In this document: in pieces, positions 7,817-55,733 of the stretch
How the letters are laid out: each line of letters starts with the position of its first letter
How positions within the stretch are numbered: the stretch's first letter is position 1
Assembly: GCA_035641235.1 (NCBI GenBank)
Contig: DASQUP010000144.1
Location: forward strand, 1 to 61,504
Reading direction: 5' to 3'
Length of the DNA stretch: 61,504 bases
Source: Actinomycetota bacterium
GTDB taxonomy: Bacteria > Actinomycetota > CADDZG01 > WHSQ01
Translations under genes and position numbers: made by a program
The notes under the pieces: generated by a model
Told to the model about the DNA's origin: nothing
What the model saw: the letters and a program-made list of their open reading frames with translations, nothing else
Databases searched by the model: none

Positions 7817-8203
7817 ATGACGGACCTACATCGATATATCGCATACGCGATCCCGGCCGGATTCGCGCTGATGGCGTTGTGGGCGCTGTTCACATTCATA
7901 CGCAACCGCGCTCCCGGTGATTGGTTCTGGAACCTGCTGGCCGCTCTTCAGGTTGTGATCGGCATCCAGATCGTCGTCGGCGCAGTTCTGTTCATTGCGG
8001 GAGGGCGACCCGAGACCAACGGACCCCAGTGGCTGCACTACGTTTACGGCGGCCTCTTTCCCGGAGCGGTTCTTGTCACCGCACATGGTTTCGCGCGTTC
8101 GGAAAGGTTCCGGGACATCCCGTGGGTCGCCTTCGGCGTCGCAGCTCTTGTTTGTTTCGGGTTGACCTTTCGTGCTCTTCAAACCGGCCTTGGCATCGAC
8201 TGA
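7817..8203 (+). CDS. small integral membrane protein (about 4 TM), function unknown
   Basis: 128-aa hydrophobic ORF placed tightly between AcuC-like and MarP-like genes. No recognisable motif. Confidence 0.6.
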   Translation: MTDLHRYIAYAIPAGFALMALWALFTFIRNRAPGDWFWNLLAALQVVIGIQIVVGAVLFIAGGRPETNGPQWLHYVYGGLFPGAVLVTAHGFARSERFRDIPWVAFGVAALVCFGLTFRALQTGLGID

Positions 8204-8221
8204 CGCGACAGAGCGGGCTTC

Positions 8222-9397
8222 GTGAACCTCCTCGATCTGATCGTGATCCTCGTCGCCGTCGCATTGGCTTATCGCGGCTGGCACAAGGGACTCGTTGGCC
8301 AGGTTTTCGAGCTCGGCGGGGGGTTCCTCGGGCTGATTGTCGGAATCGCGGTGGGCCCTCGAATCGCCGCCGCGTTCACCGATCGCCCCGGGCTTCAGGG
8401 CGCGCTGATCTCGCTATTCGTCGTCTTCGTTCTGCTCTCGATCGGGCAGACGGCCGGCTACATCGTCGGTCACAGAGGTGGCGTCATGGCCAGGCGGGCA
8501 CGCCTGGGCGGTGTCAACCAGACCCTCGGCGCCGGTTTCGGCGTGGTCATCACCGTGATCACGCTGTGGCTCGTCGGCTCCTTACTCGTTTCCGTTCCGT
8601 CGCGCCCGCTTGCCAGGACCTTTCGGGGATCGGCGGTGCTGCGAGCGGTGAGCGACACGCTCCCGCGGCCACCCAACCTGGTCTTCTATCTGCGTCAGTA
8701 CCTCGACACATCGGGGTTCCCTCAGGTCTTTGCAGGGCTCCCCAGGCCCCTGGCCCCCCAGGTCGATCTCCCCGCTGGGCCTCAGGCGCGCGATGCAATC
8801 CGGGCTGCTCGGAGGTCAACCGTTCGGGTCGTCGTTCCCGCCTGTGGCGGGACACAGCTCGGAAGCGGCTGGGTTGCGGGGGAATCCACAGTCGTTACCA
8901 ATGCACACGTGCTCGCGGGGGGCGACACCATCACCATCGAGGACAACGCCGGGCGGCACGAGGGGCGGGTCGTCTTCTTCGACCCTCGCACGGATATCGC
9001 CGTCGTGAGGGTCGAGGGACTCGCCGGTCCGCCGCTCGACCTTGATGAGCGTGCGCTCGGCCGGGGAGAGGGGGGAGCAACCCTCGGATATCCGGGCGGG
9101 GGGCCGCTGGACGTTCACCCGGCGGCGGTGCGTGACCGGTATACGGCCGTTGGCCTCGATATCTACGGTCAGCGCGAGGTGTCGCGCGAGGTGTATGAAT
9201 TGAGATCACCGGTCAAGCAGGGAGATTCGGGCGGGCCGTTTGTGCTGCCGAACGGATCCGTTGCCGGCGTGGTTTTTGCGGCTTCCACGACTGATAGTGA
9301 TACGGGATACGCGCTCACCGGTGACGAGGTCATGGACGAGATCGAAGAGGGGCTGTCGGCGGCATCGCCCGTGCCCACGGGCCGGTGCACCCACTAG
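8222..9397 (+). CDS. marP: MarP-type membrane serine protease (CvpA-like N-terminal TM domain plus trypsin-like S1 domain)
   Basis: N-terminal MNLLDLIVILVAVALAYRGWHKG (CvpA-like). C-terminal protease with VVTNAHV (His), TDIAVV (Asp) and GDSGGP (Ser). Confidence 0.85.
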   Translation: MNLLDLIVILVAVALAYRGWHKGLVGQVFELGGGFLGLIVGIAVGPRIAAAFTDRPGLQGALISLFVVFVLLSIGQTAGYIVGHRGGVMARRARLGGVNQTLGAGFGVVITVITLWLVGSLLVSVPSRPLARTFRGSAVLRAVSDTLPRPPNLVFYLRQYLDTSGFPQVFAGLPRPLAPQVDLPAGPQARDAIRAARRSTVRVVVPACGGTQLGSGWVAGESTVVTNAHVLAGGDTITIEDNAGRHEGRVVFFDPRTDIAVVRVEGLAGPPLDLDERALGRGEGGATLGYPGGGPLDVHPAAVRDRYTAVGLDIYGQREVSREVYELRSPVKQGDSGGPFVLPNGSVAGVVFAASTTDSDTGYALTGDEVMDEIEEGLSAASPVPTGRCTH

Positions 9398-28797: not shown

Positions 28798-29805
28798 CTA
28801 CAGGCTTCGCTCGTACTCGACGACGGCTCGTATCTGACTGTCGGTTAGCGGATACGGGGGCACAGGTATCCCCTGGGCCGGCGCTTCGGAAAAGGTAGGC
28901 ATGAACGCGAACCGACGTCCGTTGATGACGGTCAAGAGATGCTGGCTGCGCGGCAGGTGTCCCACTTTGCCCTGCCACAGCGCCATACCCTGGCGGTAGG
29001 GCTCTTCATCCTTCCCCTGACCCTCGGGACCGTGACACACGGCGCAGCGCGCTTCGAAGATCTCCTGACCGCACTGAAGTGTGTTCTCTCCGCCTATAGG
29101 ATCTGGATCCTGGCACTCCTCCGAGACCTCGGGGGCTTCAGAGTTCTCGGGCAGCGTCCGTAGCCAGTTCATAACGTCGTCGACCATCTGGTCGGTCATC
29201 GAGCCGCCGAACGCCACGCCCCACGCCGGCATGGGCGTCCCGGGGCGGCCGCGCTGAATGGTGAATCTGATGACCTCTTCGTCCCAGCGAGTGAACACGT
29301 TGTTTAGCGGGGGTGCGGCGTACTTCACGGCCTGTTCCGTGACGGGATCGAGGAAGTCGGGAGTCGCGTTCCCGCCGACCCCGTCCGCGCCATGGCAGTT
29401 GATGCACGCCTGCCCGAGAGCTATCTCCCGTTCGCGCTCCCGGAACAGAGCCGGGTCGGCGTCCTCTTCGAGTTGGGGTGGCACCGAATAGATCAGCTCA
29501 CCGCGCTCGACGGACTCCTCGTCGAAACGTTCCGCAAACGCTTCCTGGCGGTCGGCCTCCGGGAGCCAGTAGGCAGGTATGAACAGCGCCAGGGCAACGG
29601 TTGCGATTACGCCCCCAACTTGAACGCGCTGGAGTCTTCTCCCCTCCAGCTTCTCGTCGGTCTCGCCGGGCCGCAGCGCCCGCGGGATGCCGAGTTGCGC
29701 CGCCGGGCTCTTGGGTCTTGTTGTCGACCGAAGAAAGACCCCCCACAGAATGGCCGCACCGAGAATGAGAACGAGCGCGATGACGATGACATCGTTGGAC
29801 TGCAA
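28798..29805 (-). CDS. membrane-anchored dihaem cytochrome c (QcrC-like)
   Basis: Two CxxCH motifs (CINCH, CAVCH). N-terminal TM helices. Confidence 0.88.
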   Translation of the reverse strand: MQSNDVIVIALVLILGAAILWGVFLRSTTRPKSPAAQLGIPRALRPGETDEKLEGRRLQRVQVGGVIATVALALFIPAYWLPEADRQEAFAERFDEESVERGELIYSVPPQLEEDADPALFREREREIALGQACINCHGADGVGGNATPDFLDPVTEQAVKYAAPPLNNVFTRWDEEVIRFTIQRGRPGTPMPAWGVAFGGSMTDQMVDDVMNWLRTLPENSEAPEVSEECQDPDPIGGENTLQCGQEIFEARCAVCHGPEGQGKDEEPYRQGMALWQGKVGHLPRSQHLLTVINGRRFAFMPTFSEAPAQGIPVPPYPLTDSQIRAVVEYERSL

Positions 29806-29823
29806 CTCAGCCTCGCATTTCCA

Positions 29824-30642
29824 TTACGTCGGGACGCACAAGCCCCCCACCGGCTCGGAGAACCGGTCCCAAGTGTCTGTACCACGCGGCGGGCCCGTCT
29901 GGACGGCGCCGGTGTCGACGACCACCTTGCCGCCCTCGATGGCAACGGGAAAGCGGTCGAGCCCGCGCGGTGCGGGTCCGCCGAAGTACTCGCCGTTCAG
30001 CCGGTACTTCGAGCCGTGGCACGGGCACTCAAACAGCATCGAAGTCTCACAGTGCGGAACCGAGCAGCCCAGGTGCACACACTTCCGGTACAGGGCAAGA
30101 AGTTTGGTGTCTACTGCATTGACGGCCGTGTAGACGGGATCGTCTCCCGTGCCCTCGTAGAACGTAAGCCAGAAGCGCCCCTCCGCCACGAACTTGGGTT
30201 TGAATCCGTTGCCGGGGCCGACCTCGTCCAACAGGTCTTCGTAGTTGCCCGCGGTGATCGCGGTGCCGAAACCTCCGGTCAGCTTCGGCCACAGGAACGA
30301 AAGGCTGCTCATCCCAAAGAGCCCGAGGAAGGTCAGGAACGAGGCATTCCATGCACGATTGAGGAACTGGCGCCGAGAGACGGCCATCTGGTCGGGCGTC
30401 AGCGGTTTGCGTTGCTTCTCCGGCACCTTCTGAACGGTTACCTCGCGTGACCCGGCTGTTTCCTGAGTGGTTTGCGCCTGCATGGGTTCGGCCCCGGAGG
30501 TGTGCTCAACGGGGGGTGCGCCCTCCGGAGCGGCGGCAGCAGCCGCCTGCCGCTGCCTGCGGATGGTCACGTTGGCCATGAACAGTGCCCAGGCGGCGAC
30601 GCTCAACGCCACAACTATGAGTGCGATCGTGCCTGGACTCAC
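29824..30642 (-). CDS. qcrA: Rieske 2Fe-2S subunit
   Basis: CVHLGC...CPCHGS Rieske boxes. Internal twin-arginine motif SRRQFLNRAW ahead of the last TM. GTG start. Confidence 0.9.
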   Translation of the reverse strand: MSPGTIALIVVALSVAAWALFMANVTIRRQRQAAAAAAPEGAPPVEHTSGAEPMQAQTTQETAGSREVTVQKVPEKQRKPLTPDQMAVSRRQFLNRAWNASFLTFLGLFGMSSLSFLWPKLTGGFGTAITAGNYEDLLDEVGPGNGFKPKFVAEGRFWLTFYEGTGDDPVYTAVNAVDTKLLALYRKCVHLGCSVPHCETSMLFECPCHGSKYRLNGEYFGGPAPRGLDRFPVAIEGGKVVVDTGAVQTGPPRGTDTWDRFSEPVGGLCVPT

Positions 30643-30654
30643 TTCATTACCCCT

Positions 30655-31509
30655 TTACAACTCGAAGAAGATTCCGTCGTTCCACGGGAACGTGAAGTTG
30701 AACCCTGGTCCCCGGAAGAACATCCCGATGATGGTCAGCACAGCAAAAGTCAGCATGTAGAACGAGAAGATTACGATCGCCACCTTGCGGTCGTCCGGGC
30801 GAGTGGAGGGATTCCGGTCGATGTATGGCCACGCAAACATCGCAATGATGATCACCGTGGGGATCGTCACTCCTGCAACCTGCGGGTGCAGGTAACGCAA
30901 GAGCTCCTGAAGGCCGAGGAAGTACCACGGAGCCTTTGATGGGTTGGGAGTCTGGTTGAAGTTCGCGAGTTCGCGCAGTGGCGCATCGACGGCCGTGGAG
31001 AAGAAGGTCAACAATGCCATCACCACAAGCAGAGACACGAACTCGGCTGCCATTAGGTGTGGCCACACGTTGATGCGGTCCATCGGCTGGCGTTCAACCT
31101 TCTGGATGGCTTCAGGTTTGACGACAGCCAGAAGTCGCTGAACGCGTTCGGGAACGGCGGAGGCTCCGTTGCCGGCGGCCCGGCGGGCCGGCGCGCCGCT
31201 CCTGGGGGCTGCTGCGGGCTTGGATGCCGCCGGCTTGGCGGCGGCCGGAGCCTTGGCGGCAGGCGCTGCTGCCGGTGCCGCGGCGGCGGGCTGTTCGGCC
31301 GGTGTCTCAGCCGCCTCGGCGGGAGTCGCAGCCGCGGGTTCGGCTGCCGGCCTGCTCGCGGTCGACGGGTCGGGCACGTTTGGGGTCTTGGAGCCGCGTT
31401 CGGCCCGCACCCGTGCCGCCTTCGCTCGAGCCTGGGCGACGGCTGGGGAGGAGCCCTTGTCGGTCTCCTCCTTGAGTACCTGTTCGTAGACCTCGTCTGG
31501 AGTCGGCAT
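30655..31509 (-). CDS. cytochrome b C-terminal part (b6f subunit IV-like) with N-terminal conserved module and Ala/Pro-rich linker
   Basis: C-terminal 3-TM region with NPSKAPWYFLGLQELLR (position of the PEWY Qo motif). The N-terminal ~130 aa are a charged module plus an A/P/K-rich low-complexity tract. Confidence 0.8.
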   Translation of the reverse strand: MPTPDEVYEQVLKEETDKGSSPAVAQARAKAARVRAERGSKTPNVPDPSTASRPAAEPAAATPAEAAETPAEQPAAAAPAAAPAAKAPAAAKPAASKPAAAPRSGAPARRAAGNGASAVPERVQRLLAVVKPEAIQKVERQPMDRINVWPHLMAAEFVSLLVVMALLTFFSTAVDAPLRELANFNQTPNPSKAPWYFLGLQELLRYLHPQVAGVTIPTVIIIAMFAWPYIDRNPSTRPDDRKVAIVIFSFYMLTFAVLTIIGMFFRGPGFNFTFPWNDGIFFEL

Positions 31510-31531
31510 AGTCGTAGTCCTCAGTCCGCCC

Positions 31532-32305
31532 CTATATGGGGCCCGAGATGCCTCCGTCCTTTCTCACTCGCCAGAAGTGAATCGAAATGAAGATCACGAT
31601 GAGGAACGGCAAGAACAACACGTGCAGTGTGTACCACCTGATCAGTGTTTCAGGGCCGATCACGGGTCCGCCCAAGAGAGCGAACTGGACCTGATCACCG
31701 ATCACAGGTGAGTTCTTCATCATCTCCGTCCCGACGGTGACCGCCCATACTGCGAGTTGGTCCCACGGCAGCAGGTAGCCCGTAAAGGCCAGCAGCAGCG
31801 TCAACAAGAGAAGGACGACGCCGACGATCCAGTTGAACTCGCGCGGTGGTTTGTAGGCGCCGGTGTAGAAGACCCGGGCCATGTGCAGGAATACCGTTAT
31901 CACCATGAGGTGGGCACCCCACCGATGCAGGTTGCGGACGAGAAGTCCGAACGACACCTGCGTATTAAGTCCCTGCATGTCCGAGTAAACGAGATCCACC
32001 GACGGCCGGTAGAAGAACATCAGGTAGATACCTGTGATCGTCAACAGAATGAACAGGAAGAAGGTAAGTCCACCGAGGCACAACGTGTAGGAAAGCTTGA
32101 CTCCGTGCCGCTTCACCTTCACCGGATGAAGGTGGTAAAGCACCGAGTTCATTACTACGTATGCGCGGTTCCGGGGAGAGTCCGCATACCCCCGCCGAAA
32201 GATAGAACCCGGCCGGAACATAGAGCGCCAGAGCTGGCTTCCGTGGAGCTGATCGAGGCGCTCGCCTACCTTTTCTCTCGGATTCCACCCGGACTCGTTG
32301 GCCAC
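31532..32305 (-). CDS. qcrB: cytochrome b6-type subunit (N-terminal 4-TM cytochrome b)
   Basis: Haem-ligand pairs H-x13-H (HRWGAHLMVITVFLH) and H-x14-H (HVLFLPFLIVIFISIH). YTLCLGG retains the b6/Firmicute haem-ci Cys. GTG at 32305 has GGAGGG 10 nt upstream (ORF track 31532..32407). Confidence 0.88.
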   Translation of the reverse strand: MANESGWNPREKVGERLDQLHGSQLWRSMFRPGSIFRRGYADSPRNRAYVVMNSVLYHLHPVKVKRHGVKLSYTLCLGGLTFFLFILLTITGIYLMFFYRPSVDLVYSDMQGLNTQVSFGLLVRNLHRWGAHLMVITVFLHMARVFYTGAYKPPREFNWIVGVVLLLLTLLLAFTGYLLPWDQLAVWAVTVGTEMMKNSPVIGDQVQFALLGGPVIGPETLIRWYTLHVLFLPFLIVIFISIHFWRVRKDGGISGPI

Positions 32306-32321
32306 TCCGGTCTTTCCCTCC

Positions 32322-32744
32322 CTAGGATGCCTTCTGGGACTCGGGCACAGTTCCCATAGCCCGGGCTCCGCGCTTCTTTTTTCCACCTGCCACCTGGCTC
32401 TGCACAAGAGCGCCTGTGGGGCACCGCTCCACGCAGAGGTTGCAGCGGGTGCATGCGTTGTCGTCGATCAGGAACAGGATGTCGCTGGGATCCATCATCC
32501 CGGCAAGAGCCACGTTGCCGGACTCCGCCACGGCTTCGGGATCCACCATGTGGATGCAGTACCACGGGCAGATGTCTACGCACCCCTCGCAAAGGATGCA
32601 CTGCTCGGGGATGAAATCGATGAAGTTCTTGGGTTTGACGGCGCCCTTGAGCCACTCGTCGTCGACGAGTTGCATCTCGTAGTCGATCCGGAAGATGGGC
32701 TTCTGGATCGTTTCCATTTTGCGCGGCTCTGGTGGTTTGGGCAT
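32322..32744 (-). CDS. 2x[4Fe-4S] ferredoxin-domain protein, soluble
   Basis: CILCEGCVDICP and CTRCNLCVERCP cluster motifs. No TM helix or signal peptide. The stop lies 16 nt before the cyt b6 start. Confidence 0.85.
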   Translation of the reverse strand: MPKPPEPRKMETIQKPIFRIDYEMQLVDDEWLKGAVKPKNFIDFIPEQCILCEGCVDICPWYCIHMVDPEAVAESGNVALAGMMDPSDILFLIDDNACTRCNLCVERCPTGALVQSQVAGGKKKRGARAMGTVPESQKAS

Positions 32745-32750
32745 GTTCCC

Positions 32751-33122
32751 CTATTTCCCGGACATGTAGCCCTTGACGGGGTCCTGGAGACCCCTGGCGC
32801 CGGTGCGCTTCTGCTTGCCCTTCTGCCAGAAGTAGGCCATTCCCAACATCACCACGAGAGCACCGATCTGCACCGTGTTGGCGATGATGTCGCGGACCAT
32901 TGCGATCTGCTTGGGGTTGAGGCCCTCGTCGTTCACGCCTGGGATCTTCGTGGTGAAGTCGATGATGCCCGAGACCTCCTGATCGAAGTAATAAATGATG
33001 TAGGAGGGAATCTGGCCGAGCAGGATGATTGCCAGTATCCAGATGATGCTTCCGAGAACAATGGCGCGAGTCCAGGTCATCGGTTTGTCGGTGTACTTGT
33101 ACACGCGCTCTCGCATCGACAT
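32751..33122 (-). CDS. 2-TM membrane protein, first gene of the Rieske/cyt b operon (function unknown)
   Basis: ORF 32751..33158, ATG at 33122/33116 preferred. Two hydrophobic helices. 6 nt from the ferredoxin start. Confidence 0.6.
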   Translation of the reverse strand: MSMRERVYKYTDKPMTWTRAIVLGSIIWILAIILLGQIPSYIIYYFDQEVSGIIDFTTKIPGVNDEGLNPKQIAMVRDIIANTVQIGALVVMLGMAYFWQKGKQKRTGARGLQDPVKGYMSGK

Positions 33123-33206
33123 TGCGCGCCATCTTACAGTCCTCGTAGGGCCAATCAACTTAAGCGGCCGATCAAGATTCCGCCGTGTGACCTGGGACTT
33201 TGCGCG

Positions 33207-34143: not shown

Positions 34144-34186
34144 CTTTGGTCGAAAACCTACTCGTAGCGCAGGTTTTATGCCAAAG
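34144..34186. repeat. nested double hairpin straddling the stop of DUF559 gene 1
   Basis: CTTTGG tcg AAAACCT actcgtagcgc AGGTTTT atg CCAAAG. Shares the 10-mer CGAAAACCTA with the left edge of the type B copy at 54615. Confidence 0.45.
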
Positions 34187-35141
34187 AACGTCCCAGGGCA
34201 TTTGCAATCTCTCTAGCCAGTCCGCTCGGGTCATTTTTCATCCGAGCGTAGGTGACGTGCAACACTCTTTTTCCGCTTGCGGTGAGACGGTTGCGGCGTT
34301 GCAGATCGCGCTCCCAGTCCTTGGGATTGAGGTGATGGCGTCGACTGTCGACCTCGATCACAAGATCTTCATCTGGATAAATGAAGTCCACGCGTGCGAC
34401 GAACCCAGCTTCATCACGCACGACCCGCTGGCGTACTGGCAGAGGAAGGCGCTTGCGGCGGAGCAACTGGAGGAATTTTGTTTCCAGGGCGCTCTCAGTT
34501 GGGGGCGTTAGGGGATCTCTGCCTTCGAGGACGAGTCGCAGAACGCCCGATCCTCGATGGCCGCGTCCGGATGCTTCCTCGAGACGTCTCATGAGCCGAT
34601 CGAGGTTTGTCATTCGCCGGCGCAACGCACACTCCAGCGCAAGCTCCACGACATCGGCCTCCACGACCGCGCCGAGGTCGATCAACGTTCGATGCACAGT
34701 CGACATCGGGATTCCGGCTACCTCTGCAATGTCCCTGCGCGGCACCCCGGTCATCCGATGAACAATGACGTCCGGGCGTGTCGTCCGGAAGTTGCACGAC
34801 GTACTTGCCTCGATCGTCCCCTCTGGAACTTCGTCGAGTTGCCAGAACCCTGCCGCGCCTCGATGCGATGCCCATATTTGACCCGGCTTCCACAACGTCA
34901 CCGCTTTCAGCTGTTGCTTGAAGGAACTCGGCGTTGCCGAATAGCGGTAGACCGTCGGATGCTCACGTACGATCAGGCCGCTCCTCAGGCGCCGCCCGAT
35001 CCCGTGATCCTCGATGCCGACCTCGCGTGCCTGCTTCGAGGTGAAGAGCCCATACTGATTGGCCGCTATCCGCGCTAGAGCAGCGTCGCCTCGGTCGTTG
35101 GTGTGAATCCTGCCCATAAGGGACGTTGTCGCGCCGTCCAA
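34176..35141 (-). CDS. AbiEi-like wHTH plus DUF559 (Vsr-like endonuclease fold) protein, paralog 1
   Basis: N-terminal GLFTSKQAREVGI...GLIVREHPTVYRY. C-terminal DFIYPDEDLVIEVDSRRHH...RRNRLTASGKRVLHVTY. TTG at 35141 or ATG at 35117. Sits between ccmB and ccmC. Confidence 0.8.
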   Translation of the reverse strand: MDGATTSLMGRIHTNDRGDAALARIAANQYGLFTSKQAREVGIEDHGIGRRLRSGLIVREHPTVYRYSATPSSFKQQLKAVTLWKPGQIWASHRGAAGFWQLDEVPEGTIEASTSCNFRTTRPDVIVHRMTGVPRRDIAEVAGIPMSTVHRTLIDLGAVVEADVVELALECALRRRMTNLDRLMRRLEEASGRGHRGSGVLRLVLEGRDPLTPPTESALETKFLQLLRRKRLPLPVRQRVVRDEAGFVARVDFIYPDEDLVIEVDSRRHHLNPKDWERDLQRRNRLTASGKRVLHVTYARMKNDPSGLAREIANALGRSLA

Positions 35142-46410: not shown

Positions 46411-47276
46411 TTTCCGCAGCGCAAGAGGCAACCGCTGTGCTCGTGTGGCACCCGCACCCTGACGTGTGGCTGCTCGTTGTGGGGCTGCTTGTCGGCTATG
46501 TGTGGGCCGTCACCGTCCTGGGCCCGCGTCGGGCCGCCCCCGGCAAACCCATCGCAACGACCGGACAGAAGGTGTCGTTTCTGCTCGGAGTAATCGCCCT
46601 GTTGATCGCGGAGGACTGGCCGCTCCACGAGCTTGCGGAGGACTACTGGTTCTCAGCGCACATGGTCCAGCACCTGATGTTCGCGTTTGTGATTCCGCCG
46701 CTGTTGCTGCTCGGCACGCCTACATGGCTGCTGAGAGGTCTGTTGGGGAAGGGGGCCCGTTTCAAGGCCTTCCGAGTTCTGACCCGGCCCTTGATCGCCC
46801 TCGTTCTGTTCAACGGCGCAGTGGTCGCCATGCACTGGCCGTTGGTGGTCGACCTCCAATCGAACAGCGCGGTGTTCCACCTCGCATTTCACTCATTCCT
46901 CTTGGGCGCCGCGCTGGTCATGTGGTCGGTTGTGGTGTCGCCGCTTCCGGAGCTCAATCGACTTTCGGAGCCGGCGAAGATGCTCTACTTGTTCCTCCAG
47001 TCCGTCGTTCCCACGGTCCCCGCATCGTTTCTTACGTTTGCCGATCGGCCCCTGTATTCGTTCTACGAGTCGGCGCCTCGGCTGTGGGGCCTGTCGGCAG
47101 GAACCGATCAGATGATGGCGGGGCTGCTCATGAAGCTCGGTGGCGGTTTGCTACTGTGGTCCGTCATCGCGGTGATGTTCTTTAGATGGAGCGCAAAAGA
47201 AGACGCTGACGTTGGACACGAAGTCGGTTGGGATGACTTCGAGCGTGAACTCGAAGTCTGGGATATGAGGAAGTGA
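46407..47276 (+). CDS. ctaG: cytochrome c oxidase assembly factor CtaG (Bacillus Caa3_CtaG type), paralog 1
   Basis: HMVQHLMFAFVIPPLLLLGTP motif. Polytopic. ATGA overlap with ctaF. Confidence 0.85.
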   Translation: MISAAQEATAVLVWHPHPDVWLLVVGLLVGYVWAVTVLGPRRAAPGKPIATTGQKVSFLLGVIALLIAEDWPLHELAEDYWFSAHMVQHLMFAFVIPPLLLLGTPTWLLRGLLGKGARFKAFRVLTRPLIALVLFNGAVVAMHWPLVVDLQSNSAVFHLAFHSFLLGAALVMWSVVVSPLPELNRLSEPAKMLYLFLQSVVPTVPASFLTFADRPLYSFYESAPRLWGLSAGTDQMMAGLLMKLGGGLLLWSVIAVMFFRWSAKEDADVGHEVGWDDFERELEVWDMRK

Positions 47277-47941
47277 TGAGCCAGCAAGATCCGATGCTGG
47301 GAGAGGTACGTTTCAGGGTCCCGCTCCCGGTTCTGATTCCGGTCACGGCGGTCGTGGTCATCGTTCTGTTGACCTTCGGCTTTTCGCGTGTGCTGCTTGC
47401 ACTCCCTGCGGAGGCCGCTACGGCCGTCGCCACGGTGACTGCCTTGAACATCCTCGGCGCCTGCGCCGTGCTGGCCTCACGACCAAACATCTCACGCAAT
47501 GGGATGGTTGAGCTGGCCGTCGTCGTGATCTATCCCGTGATCATCGGCATCGCGATCGCACAACTGGGTATCGGGGCGGAGGAGCACGCGGAAGCAGCGC
47601 CGCCAGCGGCCGAGGAGGGAGCGCCGGCAGGTGACTCGGGCGGCCCGGTTGCCAGCGGGGGGACTATGGTCGCGGAGGACGTTCAGTTCGCGTCCGACAC
47701 CATTGAGTTAACTGCCGGGGAAGATGTCTCGATCACCTTCGACAACCGCGATGAACTCCAGCACAACGTCGCGATCTATGCAGACGAGGCCGATGCCGAC
47801 GCGCAGGAGAACCCCATCTTCCAGGGGGAGATCATCACCGGGACGACCGTCACCTACGAATTCACGGCCCCGGACGCGGGGGAGTACGTATTCCAGTGTG
47901 ACGTGCATCCCGCGATGGGCGGCACCGTAGTTGTGGAGTAG
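47273..47941 (+). CDS. membrane-anchored cupredoxin (type-1 Cu, amicyanin-like loop)
   Basis: 3 N-terminal TM helices, an A/E/G linker, then a cupredoxin with H (LQHNVAIY) and C-x2-H-x2-M (QCDVHPAM). Confidence 0.8.
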   Translation: MMSQQDPMLGEVRFRVPLPVLIPVTAVVVIVLLTFGFSRVLLALPAEAATAVATVTALNILGACAVLASRPNISRNGMVELAVVVIYPVIIGIAIAQLGIGAEEHAEAAPPAAEEGAPAGDSGGPVASGGTMVAEDVQFASDTIELTAGEDVSITFDNRDELQHNVAIYADEADADAQENPIFQGEIITGTTVTYEFTAPDAGEYVFQCDVHPAMGGTVVVE

Positions 47942-48825: not shown

Positions 48826-49026
48826 CTCTCCGTCGACGACCTTCGACCGACGCATTCGCCTACTTCTCAATAGTTCCTTGCCCCTGGCTGGAATCTTCAG
48901 GATTGCCCAGACGGCGTGCATATGCGTAACTTGTACCGGAGTGCTGATCCGCCGGGCCGGCGAACGGTTCAGCGTTTTGCCGGCCGGGTGGATGCGGGTT
49001 TACCGGTATGGCTCGAGGAGGTCCCG

Positions 49027-50193
49027 ATGGCCCAGACGAGTGCCTTTGATCCCGTCACCCAGGATGACATCCGCGACCTCCTTGCCCCTCGATCGGCTCC
49101 GGCGGTATCGATCTATCAGCCATCGCATCGCGCCGGGCCCGAGGCGGAACAGAACATCCTTCGCTACAAAAACCTGCTCTCCGATGCTGAGGCGAAGCTC
49201 TCTCAACAGGGCGTGGGCAATTCTGAAACGGGGGGGATCCTTCGCCCTGCGCGTGCACTCCTGGATCGGTCCGAGTTCTGGCGGCATCAACTTGACGGCC
49301 TTGCGGTATTTGCGGCTCCGGAGTTCTTTCGCGTGCTGAAGCTCCCACATGAGGCCGAGGAGCTTGTTGTCGTCGGCGAAACCCTGCATGTCACCCCCTT
49401 GCTTCCCGCGATGACCCAAGGGCACTTTTACATCCTTGCGGTGAGCATGGACTCGCTTCGCCTTATGCGCGCCACGCCTCACAGCATCGAGGAGGTTGAC
49501 ATCACCGACGTACCGAGAAGTCTGGCTGAGGCAACTCGCTACGACGACTACCAGAAGAAGAACCTGCAACGCCATCCCACATCGCGGGCCGGTGTGGGCG
49601 GCCGCACCATGCAGCATGGTCATGGGCCGGGTGACGAAGACCTCAAAGAGGAGATCAAGCGGTACTTCCAGGCCGCCGACGCCGGAGTCTGCCGAATGTT
49701 GACTACGGACGGCGCGCCGCTAGTCGTTGCGGCCGTCGACTATCTGATCACGATGTACCGGCATGTGACCGACTACCGGAACGTCGTGAACAAGGGCATC
49801 GAGGGGAATCCCGACCAACTGTCGCCGCGGCAATTGCTCGAACGCGCCCGCCCGATCGTTGATCCGATCTTTCGTGAGCCCCTCCTCAAGGCCAAAGACA
49901 AGTACGGCCGAGGTGAGGGTGTCGGACTCGCATCCTGTGCCCTACTCGACGTGGTGCGTGGCGCACACGCTGGAAGGGTGGAAAGCCTCATGGTGGCAAA
50001 AGGTGAGCGCCGCTGGGGGGCCTACGTTGCGGACGCCGACGCACTCGAGGTCCATGACGACCCGTCGCCGGGAGACGGGGACTTACTCGATCTCGCAACA
50101 CGCCAGAGCCTTCTTCACGGCGGATCCGTCTACCTCGTGGAGCGCGACGAGATGCCCTGTGCGGAGCCAATCGCAGCGGTGTTTCGCTACTGA
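49027..50193 (+). CDS. bacterial eRF1-like (baeRF-family) protein
   Basis: ATG at 49027 preceded by GAGGAGG. The features VSIYQPSHRAGPEAEQNILRYKNLL, HFYILAVSMDSLRL, HGHGPGDEDLKEEIKRYF, GNPDQLSPRQL and the C-terminal IAAVFRY match my recollection of baeRF3-type proteins. Needs HMM confirmation. Confidence 0.45.
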   Translation: MAQTSAFDPVTQDDIRDLLAPRSAPAVSIYQPSHRAGPEAEQNILRYKNLLSDAEAKLSQQGVGNSETGGILRPARALLDRSEFWRHQLDGLAVFAAPEFFRVLKLPHEAEELVVVGETLHVTPLLPAMTQGHFYILAVSMDSLRLMRATPHSIEEVDITDVPRSLAEATRYDDYQKKNLQRHPTSRAGVGGRTMQHGHGPGDEDLKEEIKRYFQAADAGVCRMLTTDGAPLVVAAVDYLITMYRHVTDYRNVVNKGIEGNPDQLSPRQLLERARPIVDPIFREPLLKAKDKYGRGEGVGLASCALLDVVRGAHAGRVESLMVAKGERRWGAYVADADALEVHDDPSPGDGDLLDLATRQSLLHGGSVYLVERDEMPCAEPIAAVFRY

Positions 50194-53478: not shown

Positions 53479-54564
53479 TTGGATCCAGAGCAGATCTATC
53501 AGGAAGTGCTACAGGAAGAGCAGGGCAAGGGAAGCAGCTCGCCGGTCGCCGAGGGCCGCGCCAAGGCGGCGCGCCAGAGGGCCATCGAGGGGTCACCCCA
53601 TCCGAAGGAGCCGAAGTGGTGGCCTGGGTCCCAGCCGCAGTTCGAGGGCGGTGAGGCAGCGGCGCCGGCCGAGGCCCCCGCCGAAGAGGTAGTGGAGGCC
53701 GCTCCGGCGGCCGAGGAAGCTCCGGCCGAGGCTCCCGCTCCCGCCGCCGAGGCTCCCGCTCCCGCTGCCGAGGCACCGGCTCCCGCCGCCGAAGCACCCG
53801 CGGCGGAAGCACCCGCGGCGGAAGCACCCGCGGCGGCTGCACCCGCGGCGGCTGCGCCCGCCGAGGCCCCCGCCCCGGCGGCTCCTGCGGAGCAACCAGC
53901 TGAGGCCGCTCCGGCTGCTGCTGCTACGGTTCCTCCCGCCGAGACGGTTGGGGTGTCTCCGGGACAGCCCGGGGGAACGCGGCTCCGACCCGAGGACGCT
54001 GTGACACCGCAGGCGCAGTTCGACGGCCAGGCCGCGATGCGGGAGCGCCGCAAGATGATCGACGAGTTGGTGGCCACCGGCGTGCCGGCCGTAACGGCGG
54101 CCCGGGCCGGGCGAGAGCGGTCGCCGATGCTGTCGGTGCTGCTCCTTATCGTTCCGCTCGTCGCCGTTCTGATCCTTGTTGCGCAGTACGGGGACGGGGA
54201 GACTTCCGCAGGAGGCGGCGGAGGCGGCGGCGGTGAGAACGGCGAAGGCGGCGGTGGAGGCGGTGGTGGAGGCGGTGGTGGCCTCACCGTCACGGCAAGC
54301 AACGTTCAGTTCGACACCGACCGGATCGAGCTGACCGCCGGCGAGGAGACGGCCATCGAGTTCGTCAACGACGACCAGCTCGTGCACAACATCGCGATCT
54401 ATCCCGACCAGGCAGCGGCGGACAGCCAGAGCGATGCGCTCTTCGACGGCGAGGACATCACCGGGACGACGGTCACCTATCAAGTGCCGGCAATTGAGGC
54501 GGGCGAGTATCCGTTCCAGTGCGACACGCACCCGGCAATGAACGGCACGACGGTAGTGCAGTAG
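53479..54564 (+). CDS. membrane-anchored cupredoxin with N-terminal conserved module, Ala/Pro/Glu repeat linker and poly-Gly linker
   Basis: TTG start. The N-terminal 40 aa are homologous to the subunit IV N-terminus. EAPAPAA/EAPAA tandem repeats, one TM, a G-rich tract, then a cupredoxin with H (LVHNIAIY) and C-x2-H-x2-M (QCDTHPAM). Confidence 0.8.
   Translation: MDPEQIYQEVLQEEQGKGSSSPVAEGRAKAARQRAIEGSPHPKEPKWWPGSQPQFEGGEAAAPAEAPAEEVVEAAPAAEEAPAEAPAPAAEAPAPAAEAPAPAAEAPAAEAPAAEAPAAAAPAAAAPAEAPAPAAPAEQPAEAAPAAAATVPPAETVGVSPGQPGGTRLRPEDAVTPQAQFDGQAAMRERRKMIDELVATGVPAVTAARAGRERSPMLSVLLLIVPLVAVLILVAQYGDGETSAGGGGGGGGENGEGGGGGGGGGGGGLTVTASNVQFDTDRIELTAGEETAIEFVNDDQLVHNIAIYPDQAAADSQSDALFDGEDITGTTVTYQVPAIEAGEYPFQCDTHPAMNGTTVVQ
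53728..53850 (+). repeat. in-frame tandem repeats (3 x 21 nt, then 4 x 15 nt) encoding EAPAPAA / EAPAA
   Basis: gaggctcccgctcccgccgcc x3 (53728-53790), then gaagcacccgcggcg x3 plus gctgcacccgcggcg (53791-53850). Confidence 0.85.
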
Positions 54565-54568
54565 CACC

Positions 54569-54622
54569 CCGGCGCGCCGAACACTCCCGGCGCGCCGACC
54601 ACTCCCGGCGCGCCGAAAACCT
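54569..54622 (+). repeat. 3 x 18-nt tandem repeat
   Basis: ccggcgcgccgaacactc / ccggcgcgccgaccactc / ccggcgcgccgaaaacct. Immediately 3' of the cupredoxin stop and running into the type B hairpin. Confidence 0.8.
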
Positions 54623-54666
54623 ATGTACACCACACGACAATCCTTGTCGTTCTGTGTACACAGGTT
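54618..54666. repeat. nested double hairpin, type B copy at the 3' end of DUF559 gene 2
   Basis: AACCTATGTACAC cac ACGACAA tcc TTGTCGT tct GTGTACACAGGTT. Ends 3 nt before the minus-strand stop at 54670. Confidence 0.7.
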
Positions 54667-54669
54667 CGA

Positions 54670-55608
54670 TCAGAGCGTGCGTGCGAGGGCGCGCCGGAGC
54701 CGGTTGGCAACGCGATCGGGGTGGCGCTCGATTTCGCGAAGCGTCGTTTGGATGATGATCCATCCGAGGCTTGCGAACTCGCTGATGCGCGCGCGGTCCC
54801 GTTCGAACGCGGCTCTGCCCGAGTGCCATTCGAACGAGTCGGCCTCGATTCCCACAAGGACCTCCGGATAGGCGAAGTCCAGGCGAGCGGGTCCGTAGTC
54901 CGGAAGCGTCACCCAGTGCTGGAATACCGGCTGTGGGAAGCCGTAGCGCCGCCGCCACTCATTGACCAGCGTCTCGAGTTCGGTATCGGTCATCGCTCGA
55001 TCCGGATCGCGGTCGTCGAGGAACTCGTTGAGCAGAGTGAGCCCGGGCAGCCTCATGCTCCTCAATTCCTCGGCGCGCCGGCGAAAGGCAGCGGGGGAGG
55101 CCCCCCTTCGAAGCGCCTGATCGAAGGCCATCTCCGCGGTCCGGTTCTCAACCTGGCCACAGAGGTCAATGACGGTGCGGCAAAGACCAGTCGTGGGGAG
55201 GGAGCCGAGTCGGGTTACGTCTCGAGCCTCCAGGCTGCCGCACCTCCGGGCGATGATCTTGGATCCGGCTCGGCGGAGGTTTCGCGGGCTCGAGATCTCC
55301 GGAGGATCCCACCGTCCACCGGCGAGATCCCAAGCTGCGGCCGCGCAGCGCCCGTACACCACCGCCTCGGGGCCCCCGTACAGAACTGCCGCCATGGCCC
55401 GTTGTTCGCGGGTGGTTGGCGTCCCCGCCTGGCGGAAGACGGAGGGGTGGAGTACCTCCCACCGACCGGTTCGGATTCTGTAACGGATCATGCGGGGAGT
55501 CATCCCCGCCCTCTGTGCCTGCCTTTCGTGGATGACGCCGAACTGGGACCGCATGATTGCCACACACTCGGCTTCGGCCCGATGGTTGACTTCCGCGTCC
55601 AGGGACAT
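54670..55608 (-). CDS. AbiEi-like wHTH plus DUF559 endonuclease-fold protein, paralog 2
   Basis: ORF 54670..55707. ATG at 55608 (MSLDAEV...) is preferred by alignment with paralog 1. C-terminal DFAYPEVLVGIEADSFEWH...RARISEFASLGWIIIQTT. Confidence 0.8.
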   Translation of the reverse strand: MSLDAEVNHRAEAECVAIMRSQFGVIHERQAQRAGMTPRMIRYRIRTGRWEVLHPSVFRQAGTPTTREQRAMAAVLYGGPEAVVYGRCAAAAWDLAGGRWDPPEISSPRNLRRAGSKIIARRCGSLEARDVTRLGSLPTTGLCRTVIDLCGQVENRTAEMAFDQALRRGASPAAFRRRAEELRSMRLPGLTLLNEFLDDRDPDRAMTDTELETLVNEWRRRYGFPQPVFQHWVTLPDYGPARLDFAYPEVLVGIEADSFEWHSGRAAFERDRARISEFASLGWIIIQTTLREIERHPDRVANRLRRALARTL

Positions 55609-55684
55609 TGGGTGATCAAGCCACGCAACCGAACCTCGAGCTGTGGCGCGCGCCACTTTTTCGGAAAAAATCCTCGGTCCGCCA

Positions 55685-55733
55685 GACCTGTGTACACAAA
55701 CCGACAATCCTTGTCGTCCTGTGTACGCAGGTC
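55685..55733. repeat. nested double hairpin, type B copy at the 5' side of DUF559 gene 2
   Basis: GACCTGTGTACAC aaac CGACAA tcc TTGTCG tcct GTGTACGCAGGTC. Same orientation and about 85% identical to the 54618 copy. Confidence 0.7.

Follow-up and report, generated by a model that had tools for sequence, protein, structure and literature searches.

A small tethered hairpin module on respiratory-chain proteins of uncultured Actinomycetota, with a possible role in cytoplasmic docking

Two respiratory proteins encoded on one Actinomycetota contig, a subunit IV-like protein of a bc-type complex and a membrane-anchored cupredoxin, begin with related copies of a small module. To judge from profile searches, this module is a previously undescribed domain family and a mobile domain, found in one to four copies in proteins of at least seven different architectures, many of them parts of the aerobic respiratory chain. 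Our leading reading, which we hold with evenly balanced confidence, is that the module is a tethered protein-protein docking device that would join parts of the respiratory chain either to one another or to a cytoplasmic partner that they share. The window (the whole stretch of DNA analysed, 61,504 nucleotides) is a respiratory island with haem biosynthesis genes, a bc-type operon, Ccm system I genes, a caa3-type oxidase with CtaG, CtaA and CtaB, a polyprenyl synthase, a geranylgeranyl-reductase-like flavoprotein and, at its end, nuoA, nuoC, nuoD and nuoE. It also encodes a second cupredoxin without the module, and a search with Rfam found no RNA family in it. The features of the two module-bearing proteins and of the bc operon are collected in Table 1.

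Table 1. Coordinates of the module-bearing genes, their segments and the bc operon in the window
Feature	Position	Strand	Basis
Subunit IV-like open reading frame, 284 aa, begins MPTPDEVYEQVLKEETDKGSSPAVAQARAKAARVRAERGS	30655..31509	(-)	
Hairpin module of subunit IV-like protein, residues 3-39, TPDEVYEQVLKEETDKGSSPAVAQARAKAARVRAERG	31393..31503	(-)	BLASTP to cupredoxin copy; profile match 3-44, E=3e-24
Ala/Pro-rich flexible linker of subunit IV, residues 40-118	31156..31392	(-)	Composition, ortholog alignment
Juxtamembrane segment (VPERVQRLLAVVKPEAIQKVERQPMDR...) and three-helix PetD/subunit IV core with APWYFLGLQELLRY (PEWY-type) motif	30655..31155	(-)	PF00032, E=5.7e-10
Host operon of the subunit IV copy	28798..33158	(-)	Pfam and NCBIfam matches
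Small TM protein, bc operon	32751-33158	(-)	Pfam/NCBIfam annotation of operon
2x[4Fe-4S] ferredoxin, bc operon	32322-32744	(-)	Pfam/NCBIfam annotation of operon
Cytochrome b6, bc operon	31532-32407	(-)	Pfam/NCBIfam annotation of operon
Rieske, bc operon	29824-30642	(-)	Pfam/NCBIfam annotation of operon
Dihaem cytochrome c, bc operon	28798-29805	(-)	Pfam/NCBIfam annotation of operon
Module-bearing cupredoxin open reading frame, 361 aa, TTG start, begins (M)DPEQIYQEVLQEEQGKGSSSPVAEGRAKAARQRAIEGS	53479..54564	(+)	
Hairpin module of membrane-anchored cupredoxin, residues 2-38	53482..53592	(+)	BLASTP; profile match 2-43, E=5e-22
Cupredoxin-class-specific conserved add-on after the module (SPHPKEPKWWPGSQPQFEGG)	53593..53652	(+)	Motif also in other cupredoxins
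Ala/Pro/Glu-rich flexible linker of cupredoxin, residues 59-164	53653..53970	(+)	Composition
Cytoplasmic juxtamembrane segment (165-216) and single TM helix (217-237, MLSVLLLIVPLVAVLILVAQY), RAGRER before TM	53971..54189	(+)	Kyte-Doolittle peak 3.1 at 213-240
Poly-Gly spacer (54211-54282) and extracytoplasmic type-1 cupredoxin domain	54211..54564	(+)	PF13473, PF00127, ligand motifs
Second cupredoxin, without the module	47273-47941		

The similarity between the two copies had been put at about 60% identity by eye in the original prediction. Residues 4-46 of subunit IV and 3-45 of the cupredoxin align without gaps at 24 of 43 identical positions (56%; BLASTP E=7e-11), a figure that bears out the estimate, and the similarity is significant in a shuffling test as well: the Smith-Waterman score of the pair, 119, stands against 24.2 +/- 4.9 for shuffled sequences (z=19) and was reached by none of 20,000 shuffles. 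At the DNA level the modules share 58% of nucleotides over 120 codon-aligned positions and 42% at third positions, and 15 of the 23 identical residues are encoded by different codons. The duplication is therefore old, as the original prediction had argued from the divergence of the DNA, and its reading of a tract rich in Ala and Pro followed by a TM helix also holds for both proteins by composition and hydropathy. The same 58% nucleotide identity rules out a recent gene-conversion copy. A tblastn search of the window found the module in these two genes only. The sequence comparisons support the view of the module as a genuine unit that was duplicated long ago and has since been kept by selection.

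The host of the first copy is placed in the PetD/subunit IV family by a match to PF00032 (cytochrome b C-terminal/PetD) over residues 182-263 (39.8 bits, cut-off 20.7), by three hydrophobic segments (148-178, 207-230 and 241-266), by the APWYFLGLQELLRY motif and by an upstream gene that matches PF00033 (E=3.5e-46). Its linker is of low complexity, with 34 Ala and 15 Pro among residues 41-118 (78 positions). A full-length search with subunit IV returned more than 7,800 environmental relatives, which indicates that the lineage is well represented in public metagenome data, and conservation was assessed on the best 120 of these, all of which cover the module. Among these best 120 orthologs the module and the PetD core average 90% and 89% identity to the window protein, and residues 119-145 show full (100%) conservation. 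The linker averages 55% identity with 12% gaps, and its length ranges from 64 to 105 residues. In this alignment, then, the module is conserved to the same degree as the catalytic core and the linker is not. Two distant relatives (L081 and L082) have the identical bc operon gene order, and their subunit IV carries a divergent 'MAREDTPLDQETFDRVL...' copy of the module.

The host of the second copy is, by its profile matches and ligand set, a type-1 cupredoxin. Residues 270-360 match PF13473 (E=1.6e-9; 38.1 bits, cut-off 27) and PF00127 (E=2.3e-8; 34.8 bits, cut-off 21.2), and the predicted copper ligands are the His in VHNIAIY and the Cys-x2-His-x2-Met in CDTHPAM. Between the module and the membrane, residues 59-170 contain 53 Ala, 24 Pro and 17 Glu in 112 positions. 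Orthologous module copies are present in 23 proteins of this CupN type, and the juxtamembrane segment is kept in all CupN-type hosts ('CupLinker' phmmer matches). The add-on motif that follows the module, SPHPKEPKWWPGSQPQFEGG, recurs in P0006, P0019, P0024, P0028, P0030, P0031, P0036 and P0068.

AlphaFold2, given an alignment of 63 sequences, predicts that the module folds as a helical hairpin with helices at residues 4-18 and 22-41 (mean pLDDT 88, and 92-97 in the first three 10-residue blocks). Over its roughly 38 residues it has an acidic helix 1, a K-G-S turn and a helix 2 that is rich in Ala and in Arg/Lys. It is roughly charge-neutral; a hydrophobic stretch is absent. Three positions are invariant in profile numbering, namely the turn glycine G17, A23 and R26. 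Conservation in helix 2 extends along an invariant or near-invariant Ala stripe (A23-A27-A30-A34) and further along V22-R26-A29-R33 and K28, and in helix 1 it covers V5/Y6/V9/L10/E12/E13/K16. Because these conserved faces exceed what the core of the hairpin would itself need, they probably form an external interaction surface. Invariant, non-repetitive positions together with a confident predicted fold also rule out a low-complexity artefact as the source of the module. In a natural tandem (P0010, residues 1-132), an AlphaFold2 prediction from an alignment of only three sequences gave two hairpins (pLDDT 86-90) joined by a disordered linker (pLDDT below 50), and with a pTM of 0.36 the packing of one module on the other is not confident. 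The hairpin is a generic fold, and its structure thus offers no functional clue.

The original prediction could not place the module in a known domain, and searches of profile and structure collections lead to the same result. Pfam has no match to the module at E<=0.01 in either window protein, nor at E<=1 in ten module-bearing proteins that include the module-only P0039 and P0013. No match was found in NCBIfam, the best profile match among PDB sequences is at chance level (E=1.2), and the best Foldseek match in the PDB is not significant (E=3.4). A description of such a module was not found in the literature searched. WXG100/ESAT-6 proteins also form hairpins, yet the module has no Pfam match to PF06013, and its turn is K-G-S with an invariant Gly and no Trp.

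In an exhaustive HMMER search, a 10-sequence profile was run against 1.84 billion representative proteins and returned 91 proteins at E<=1e-3, 47 of them at E<=1e-10. A renewed search of these sequences with an iterated profile marked 132 module copies, one to four per protein, in N-terminal, internal or C-terminal positions (for example at 335-377 and 454-492 in P0020 and at 267-308 and 351-392 in P0035). The module had been described as an N-terminal feature of two proteins, a view that the internal and C-terminal copies and the breadth of host architectures replace with a much wider one. For host assignment, phmmer comparison with reference pieces was combined with Pfam, NCBIfam and gene context, and 76 host sequences that are fragments were left unclassified. 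Many assemblies break or frameshift within the Ala/Pro linker. A word-indexed protein search with the module profile was unusable as a census, as it gave only proteins of 84 aa or less, mostly evident fragments.

The most numerous hosts are PetD/subunit IV proteins, with one or two N-terminal copies (54 proteins), followed by the cupredoxins built as in the window, in the order module, linker, TM helix and cupredoxin domain (23 proteins). Ten proteins carry two copies on a long C-terminal extension and are assigned to NuoI of complex I, from a best match to TIGR01971 that lies under its 113-bit cut-off (101 bits, E=2.5e-29) and from a locus (L021) with the gene order nuoD-nuoH-host-nuoJ-nuoL, where the host takes the place of nuoI. 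A second cupredoxin architecture (5 proteins) starts with a signal peptide and a cupredoxin domain, followed by a TM helix, and carries two copies on its C-terminal tail. A further 12 proteins of about 200-240 aa consist of the module, a linker, a FixP_N-like single-TM anchor (a weak match, at 22.9 bits against a cut-off of 24.9) and a short tail in which two Cys are conserved. In two loci (L084 and L086) their gene lies directly 3' of ccoN-like (COX1-like) and ccoO (FixO) genes and precedes a geranylgeranyl-reductase-like gene and nuoC/nuoD. CxxCH and a cytochrome c domain are absent from the protein, which by gene position sits in the place of CcoP and by domain content is probably not a CcoP. 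The slot that it occupies in these loci corresponds in the window to the module-bearing cupredoxin.

The remaining hosts comprise a small, uncharacterised signal/TM (bitopic membrane) protein with one or two C-terminal copies, a soluble protein in which an uncharacterised N-terminal domain of about 130 residues is followed by two or three copies, and module-only repeat proteins with up to four copies, such as P0013. The neighbours of the bitopic and soluble hosts and of the signal-peptide cupredoxins include genes for Lhr helicase, Fpg, a methyltransferase, TilS, ThyX and an L,D-transpeptidase, and they give no hint of what these hosts do. With such non-respiratory neighbours beside the bitopic and soluble hosts, a pattern confined to respiration is incomplete.

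A scan of GTDB species-representative genomes with a 12-sequence alignment as query gave 137 confirmed matches. All of the 80 loci examined among these 137, which come from 65 assemblies, belong to metagenome-assembled genomes of uncultured 'Actinomycetota bacterium' or 'Actinomycetes', and among the same 80 loci at least 12 assemblies have two or three host classes. On single contigs (CALMBW010000020.1 and DATFFR010000046.1), NuoI, cupredoxin and subunit IV copies lie about 23 kb apart. Module identity is 66-82% within a host type and 34-68% between types, a pattern that is seen within a single genome as well. The copies thus group by host type and position, without concerted evolution, and are old paralogous sets, each under purifying selection.

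The side of the membrane on which the module would lie can be judged from several hosts. NuoI sits in the arm of complex I that extends into the cytoplasm, the N-terminus of PetD is on the n-side, and in the cupredoxins of both orientations the cupredoxin domain and the module are on opposite sides of one TM helix. A cytoplasmic location is consistent with every host architecture whose topology can be reasoned, NuoI included, and the placement in the cytoplasm made originally for the two window proteins extends to these wider hosts.

We infer that the module binds protein and that the binding serves co-localisation. In the docking reading, the module would be an autonomously folding cytoplasmic hairpin displayed on a long, disordered, Ala/Pro-rich tether and attached to every segment of the aerobic chain: NuoI for complex I, subunit IV for the b6c-type complex III, the putative third subunit in the cbb3-type operon and the membrane-anchored cupredoxins as carriers. 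With so long a tether, the host complexes would be able to bind one shared surface, which might be offered by a hub protein in the cytoplasm or by one another's modules or complexes, and the outcome would be that respiratory components are held in one membrane neighbourhood.

A special case of docking, which is possible but rather unlikely, is that the modules associate with themselves as multivalent 'stickers' separated by spacers, homotypically or heterotypically, for example in four-helix bundles. The number of copies per host varies and often exceeds one (NuoI and the signal-peptide cupredoxins have two, subunit IV has one or two, and module-only proteins such as P0013 have up to four), the linkers are long and disordered, and helix 1 presents two adjacent conserved hydrophobic residues per turn (V5/Y6 and V9/L10), beyond what burial within the hairpin would require. 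The unpacked hairpins in the AlphaFold2 model of the natural tandem weigh slightly against stable self-association, given the three-sequence alignment behind that model, and the copies have diverged by host type and were not homogenised. Taken to its full extent, such self-association could tentatively be pictured as a network at the cytoplasmic membrane face in which hairpins and Ala/Pro tracts link complex I, the bc complex, the cbb3-type oxidase, the anchored cupredoxins and soluble multi-module cross-linkers into a two-dimensional respiratory patch, a kind of supercomplex, an outcome that we consider doubtful. Its contacts might then be weak, between hairpins or between hairpin and hub, with tethers rather than rigid transmembrane contacts as the organising element, a detail that is likewise speculative. 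It is also conceivable, if again improbable, that the module recruits a common soluble cytoplasmic factor other than a respiratory complex, perhaps a kinase, a chaperone, a regulator or a protease adaptor, so that its membrane hosts would be controlled or turned over in concert rather than co-localised. The invariance of G17, A23 and R26 in all host types despite divergence elsewhere would fit a single partner of this kind, as would the presence of the module on soluble and uncharacterised hosts, and the conserved motifs specific to host type that follow the module (SPHPKEPKWWPG; GLPIDPQEAW.AKLE; RGIKRGPTPV...PSAPTKG) may tune specificity. However, no conserved candidate partner gene was seen beside the module-bearing genes in 112 loci, and nothing separates a soluble factor of this kind from the form of the docking reading that has a hub as scaffold.

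Readings in which the module acts within its own protein fare worse. The hairpin could fold back on the cytoplasmic face of its own complex, for instance close to cytochrome b6 on its quinone-reduction side or onto the complex I arm, and modulate activity there; a tether keeps the local concentration high, and the juxtamembrane segment of subunit IV is fully conserved. Yet one module would need to fit the unrelated surfaces of NuoI, PetD/b6, the cupredoxin anchors and the CcoP-like anchor, the tethers of 64-105 or more residues go far beyond what would be needed, and module-only proteins exist. It is because of the unrelated surfaces and the very long tethers that we regard such a regulator as quite improbable. 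Least credible of all is that the module serves at the N-terminus as a signal for targeting or membrane insertion, or that it is a generic anchor to membrane, lipid or nucleic acid. Such a role would suit the position of both window modules at the extreme N-terminus, ahead of the first TM helix, and the Arg/Lys-rich helix 2. Many copies are internal or C-terminal, however, including those of NuoI, which has no TM helix, and a near-neutral module with an acidic helix 1 and no hydrophobic stretch is unlike signal peptides and amphipathic lipid-binding helices. A role as targeting signal is excluded by the C-terminal copies and by NuoI, and the mobility of the module among N-terminal, internal and C-terminal positions likewise removes the targeting factor that had been listed among the candidate partners. 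Of the other suggestions made there, a shared docking partner or supercomplex scaffold is the most plausible, and none of the results singles out the operon ferredoxin for or against.

If the module is a docking device, it has counterparts of similar design in other systems. The peripheral subunit-binding domain of 2-oxoacid dehydrogenase E2 (PSBD; E3_binding, PF02817) is a self-folding mini-domain of about 35 residues, mainly of two helices, that sits between Ala/Pro-rich flexible linkers in a beads-on-a-string arrangement and is purely a docking site. The module resembles it in size, linker chemistry and repeated arrangement, and the likeness is one of design only: there is no match to PF02817 (E<=1), hhalign gives a probability of 0.5% against a PSBD sequence, structure prediction gives a tight antiparallel hairpin, and the hosts are membrane respiratory complexes, whereas PSBD belongs to a soluble E2 core. 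In cyanobacteria, a CpcD-like N-terminal domain docks ferredoxin-NADP reductase to the phycobilisome. Here too a flexible linker carries a small domain at the end of the protein, whose sole function is to position an electron-transfer protein at a large assembly; the domain is of a different fold and family and has one host, while the module is common to complex I-, III- and IV-type proteins and cupredoxins. The D/D hairpin of PKA RII and the docking domains of polyketide synthases are short terminal helix-turn-helix units that use flexible linkers for specific assembly. Homology of the module to either was not detected with Pfam, the PDB or Foldseek, and its self-association, unlike that of helical dimerisation domains, is unsupported in the one tandem predicted with AlphaFold2.

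How respiratory complexes are kept together, and how much this matters, is a long-standing question. Actinobacteria have an obligate CIII2CIV2 supercomplex, and supercomplex factors such as Rcf1/Hig1 and SCAF1 are known; these associations form through small membrane proteins or through contacts of transmembrane and periplasmic parts. In bacteria and mitochondria alike, the supercomplexes known so far are built on rigid contacts within the membrane or the periplasm. The theme of a quinol oxidase, an electron carrier and a terminal oxidase kept together is common to CIII2CIV2 and to the docking reading, and the phylum is the same. A cytoplasmic tethered domain common to complexes I, III and IV was not found in the literature searched. 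One module, defined by sequence and present across complex I, complex III, the cbb3-type operon and copper carriers, would offer a simple and genetically separable handle. Since it can be expressed, deleted, transplanted and used as bait, organisation by tethers becomes directly testable. For annotation, the module provides a new small domain family, and thousands of environmental proteins are 'hypothetical' or partial in the region that it covers. Its host range in this uncultured lineage, with a function that is so far deduced, is pan-respiratory and broader than first described. The lineage itself consists of uncultured, abundant Actinomycetota of soil and desert, and its respiratory chain is unusual in combining a ferredoxin-containing b6c-type operon with anchored cupredoxins.

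Immediately C-terminal of the module, the predicted helical hairpin of about 40 residues, each host type carries a short conserved motif of its own. In the cupredoxin type (P0006/P0024) this motif is SPHPKEPKWWPG, in the ccoO-adjacent type (A5) it is GLPIDPQEAW.AKLE.EGG, and in the NuoI type (P0014/P0020) it is RGIKRGPTPV..DKPVPSAPTKG...EPSGAPEA, while the soluble type (L099-L111) features a terminal variant module with a WWRPDW end. Such motifs could determine specificity, or they could be linear motifs in their own right. Proteins of the soluble family (L099-L101, L104, L105, L107, and L111) consist of an N-terminal domain of about 130 residues (PEEYFLTLVGPRVAP...VEDYRMGSF) followed by two to three modules. 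No Pfam match was found for this family, a possible cross-linker or hub. Many of the database entries for module-bearing proteins (P0001-P0009 and P0100-P0139) are partial or split, with assembly ends or frameshifts falling inside the GC-rich Ala/Pro linker. In L081, a distant relative, subunit IV (8001-8859) is called as two genes, an 81-aa module and a separate 173-aa PetD.

The window b6 protein matches ExtP (“selenite/tellurite reduction operon b-type cytochrome”) with 296.7 bits against an NCBIfam cut-off of 290, and the ExtQ match of subunit IV is weak (55 bits). The gene order of this bc-type operon is the same in the distant relatives L081 and L082. In L021 (658-7400), where the nuoI product bears the module, the genes form a nuoD-nuoH-nuoI-nuoJ-...-nuoL row with no nuoE/F/G in the D-to-H interval. 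Unlike L021, the nuo cluster of the window has nuoE directly after nuoD, and thus there may be two complex I-type operons per genome.

Features of the window, with coordinates and strand
Feature	Position	Strand	Context
Start of bc-type operon	31532-33158	-	small TM protein, 2x[4Fe-4S] ferredoxin, then cytochrome b6
AbiEi_4 + DUF559 gene	34176-35141	-	between ccmC and ccmB
Second cupredoxin	47273-47941	+	flanked by two CtaG genes
Poly-Gly tract, 24 residues, almost pure (GGGGGGGGENGEGGGGGGGGGGGG)	54211-54282	+	module-bearing cupredoxin
18-nt tandem repeats (n=3)	54568-54621		ahead of DUF559/REase_MTES_1575-like gene
47-nt internally palindromic element, two copies	54619-54665 and 55686-55732		flanking DUF559/REase_MTES_1575-like gene
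DUF559/REase_MTES_1575-like gene	54670-55707	-	between module-bearing cupredoxin and reductase genes

The second cupredoxin has neither the hairpin module nor the Ala/Pro linker, and its N-terminal region is hydrophobic and multi-helix-looking; by eye, its copper domain and that of the module-bearing cupredoxin are alike. In the latter, the poly-Gly tract lies on the outer side between the TM helix and the cupredoxin domain, so flexible spacers occur in this protein on both faces of the membrane. Downstream, the stretch from 54568 to 55732 looks like an inserted cassette, its two palindromic copies sharing 87% identity. The DUF559/REase_MTES_1575-like gene is a paralog of the AbiEi_4 + DUF559 gene (30% identity, E=6e-36), so a gene of this kind has twice come to lie within a respiratory gene cluster. 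A baeRF (bacterial archaeo-eukaryotic release-factor-like) gene (48916-50193, + strand) also lies amid the cytochrome oxidase assembly genes.
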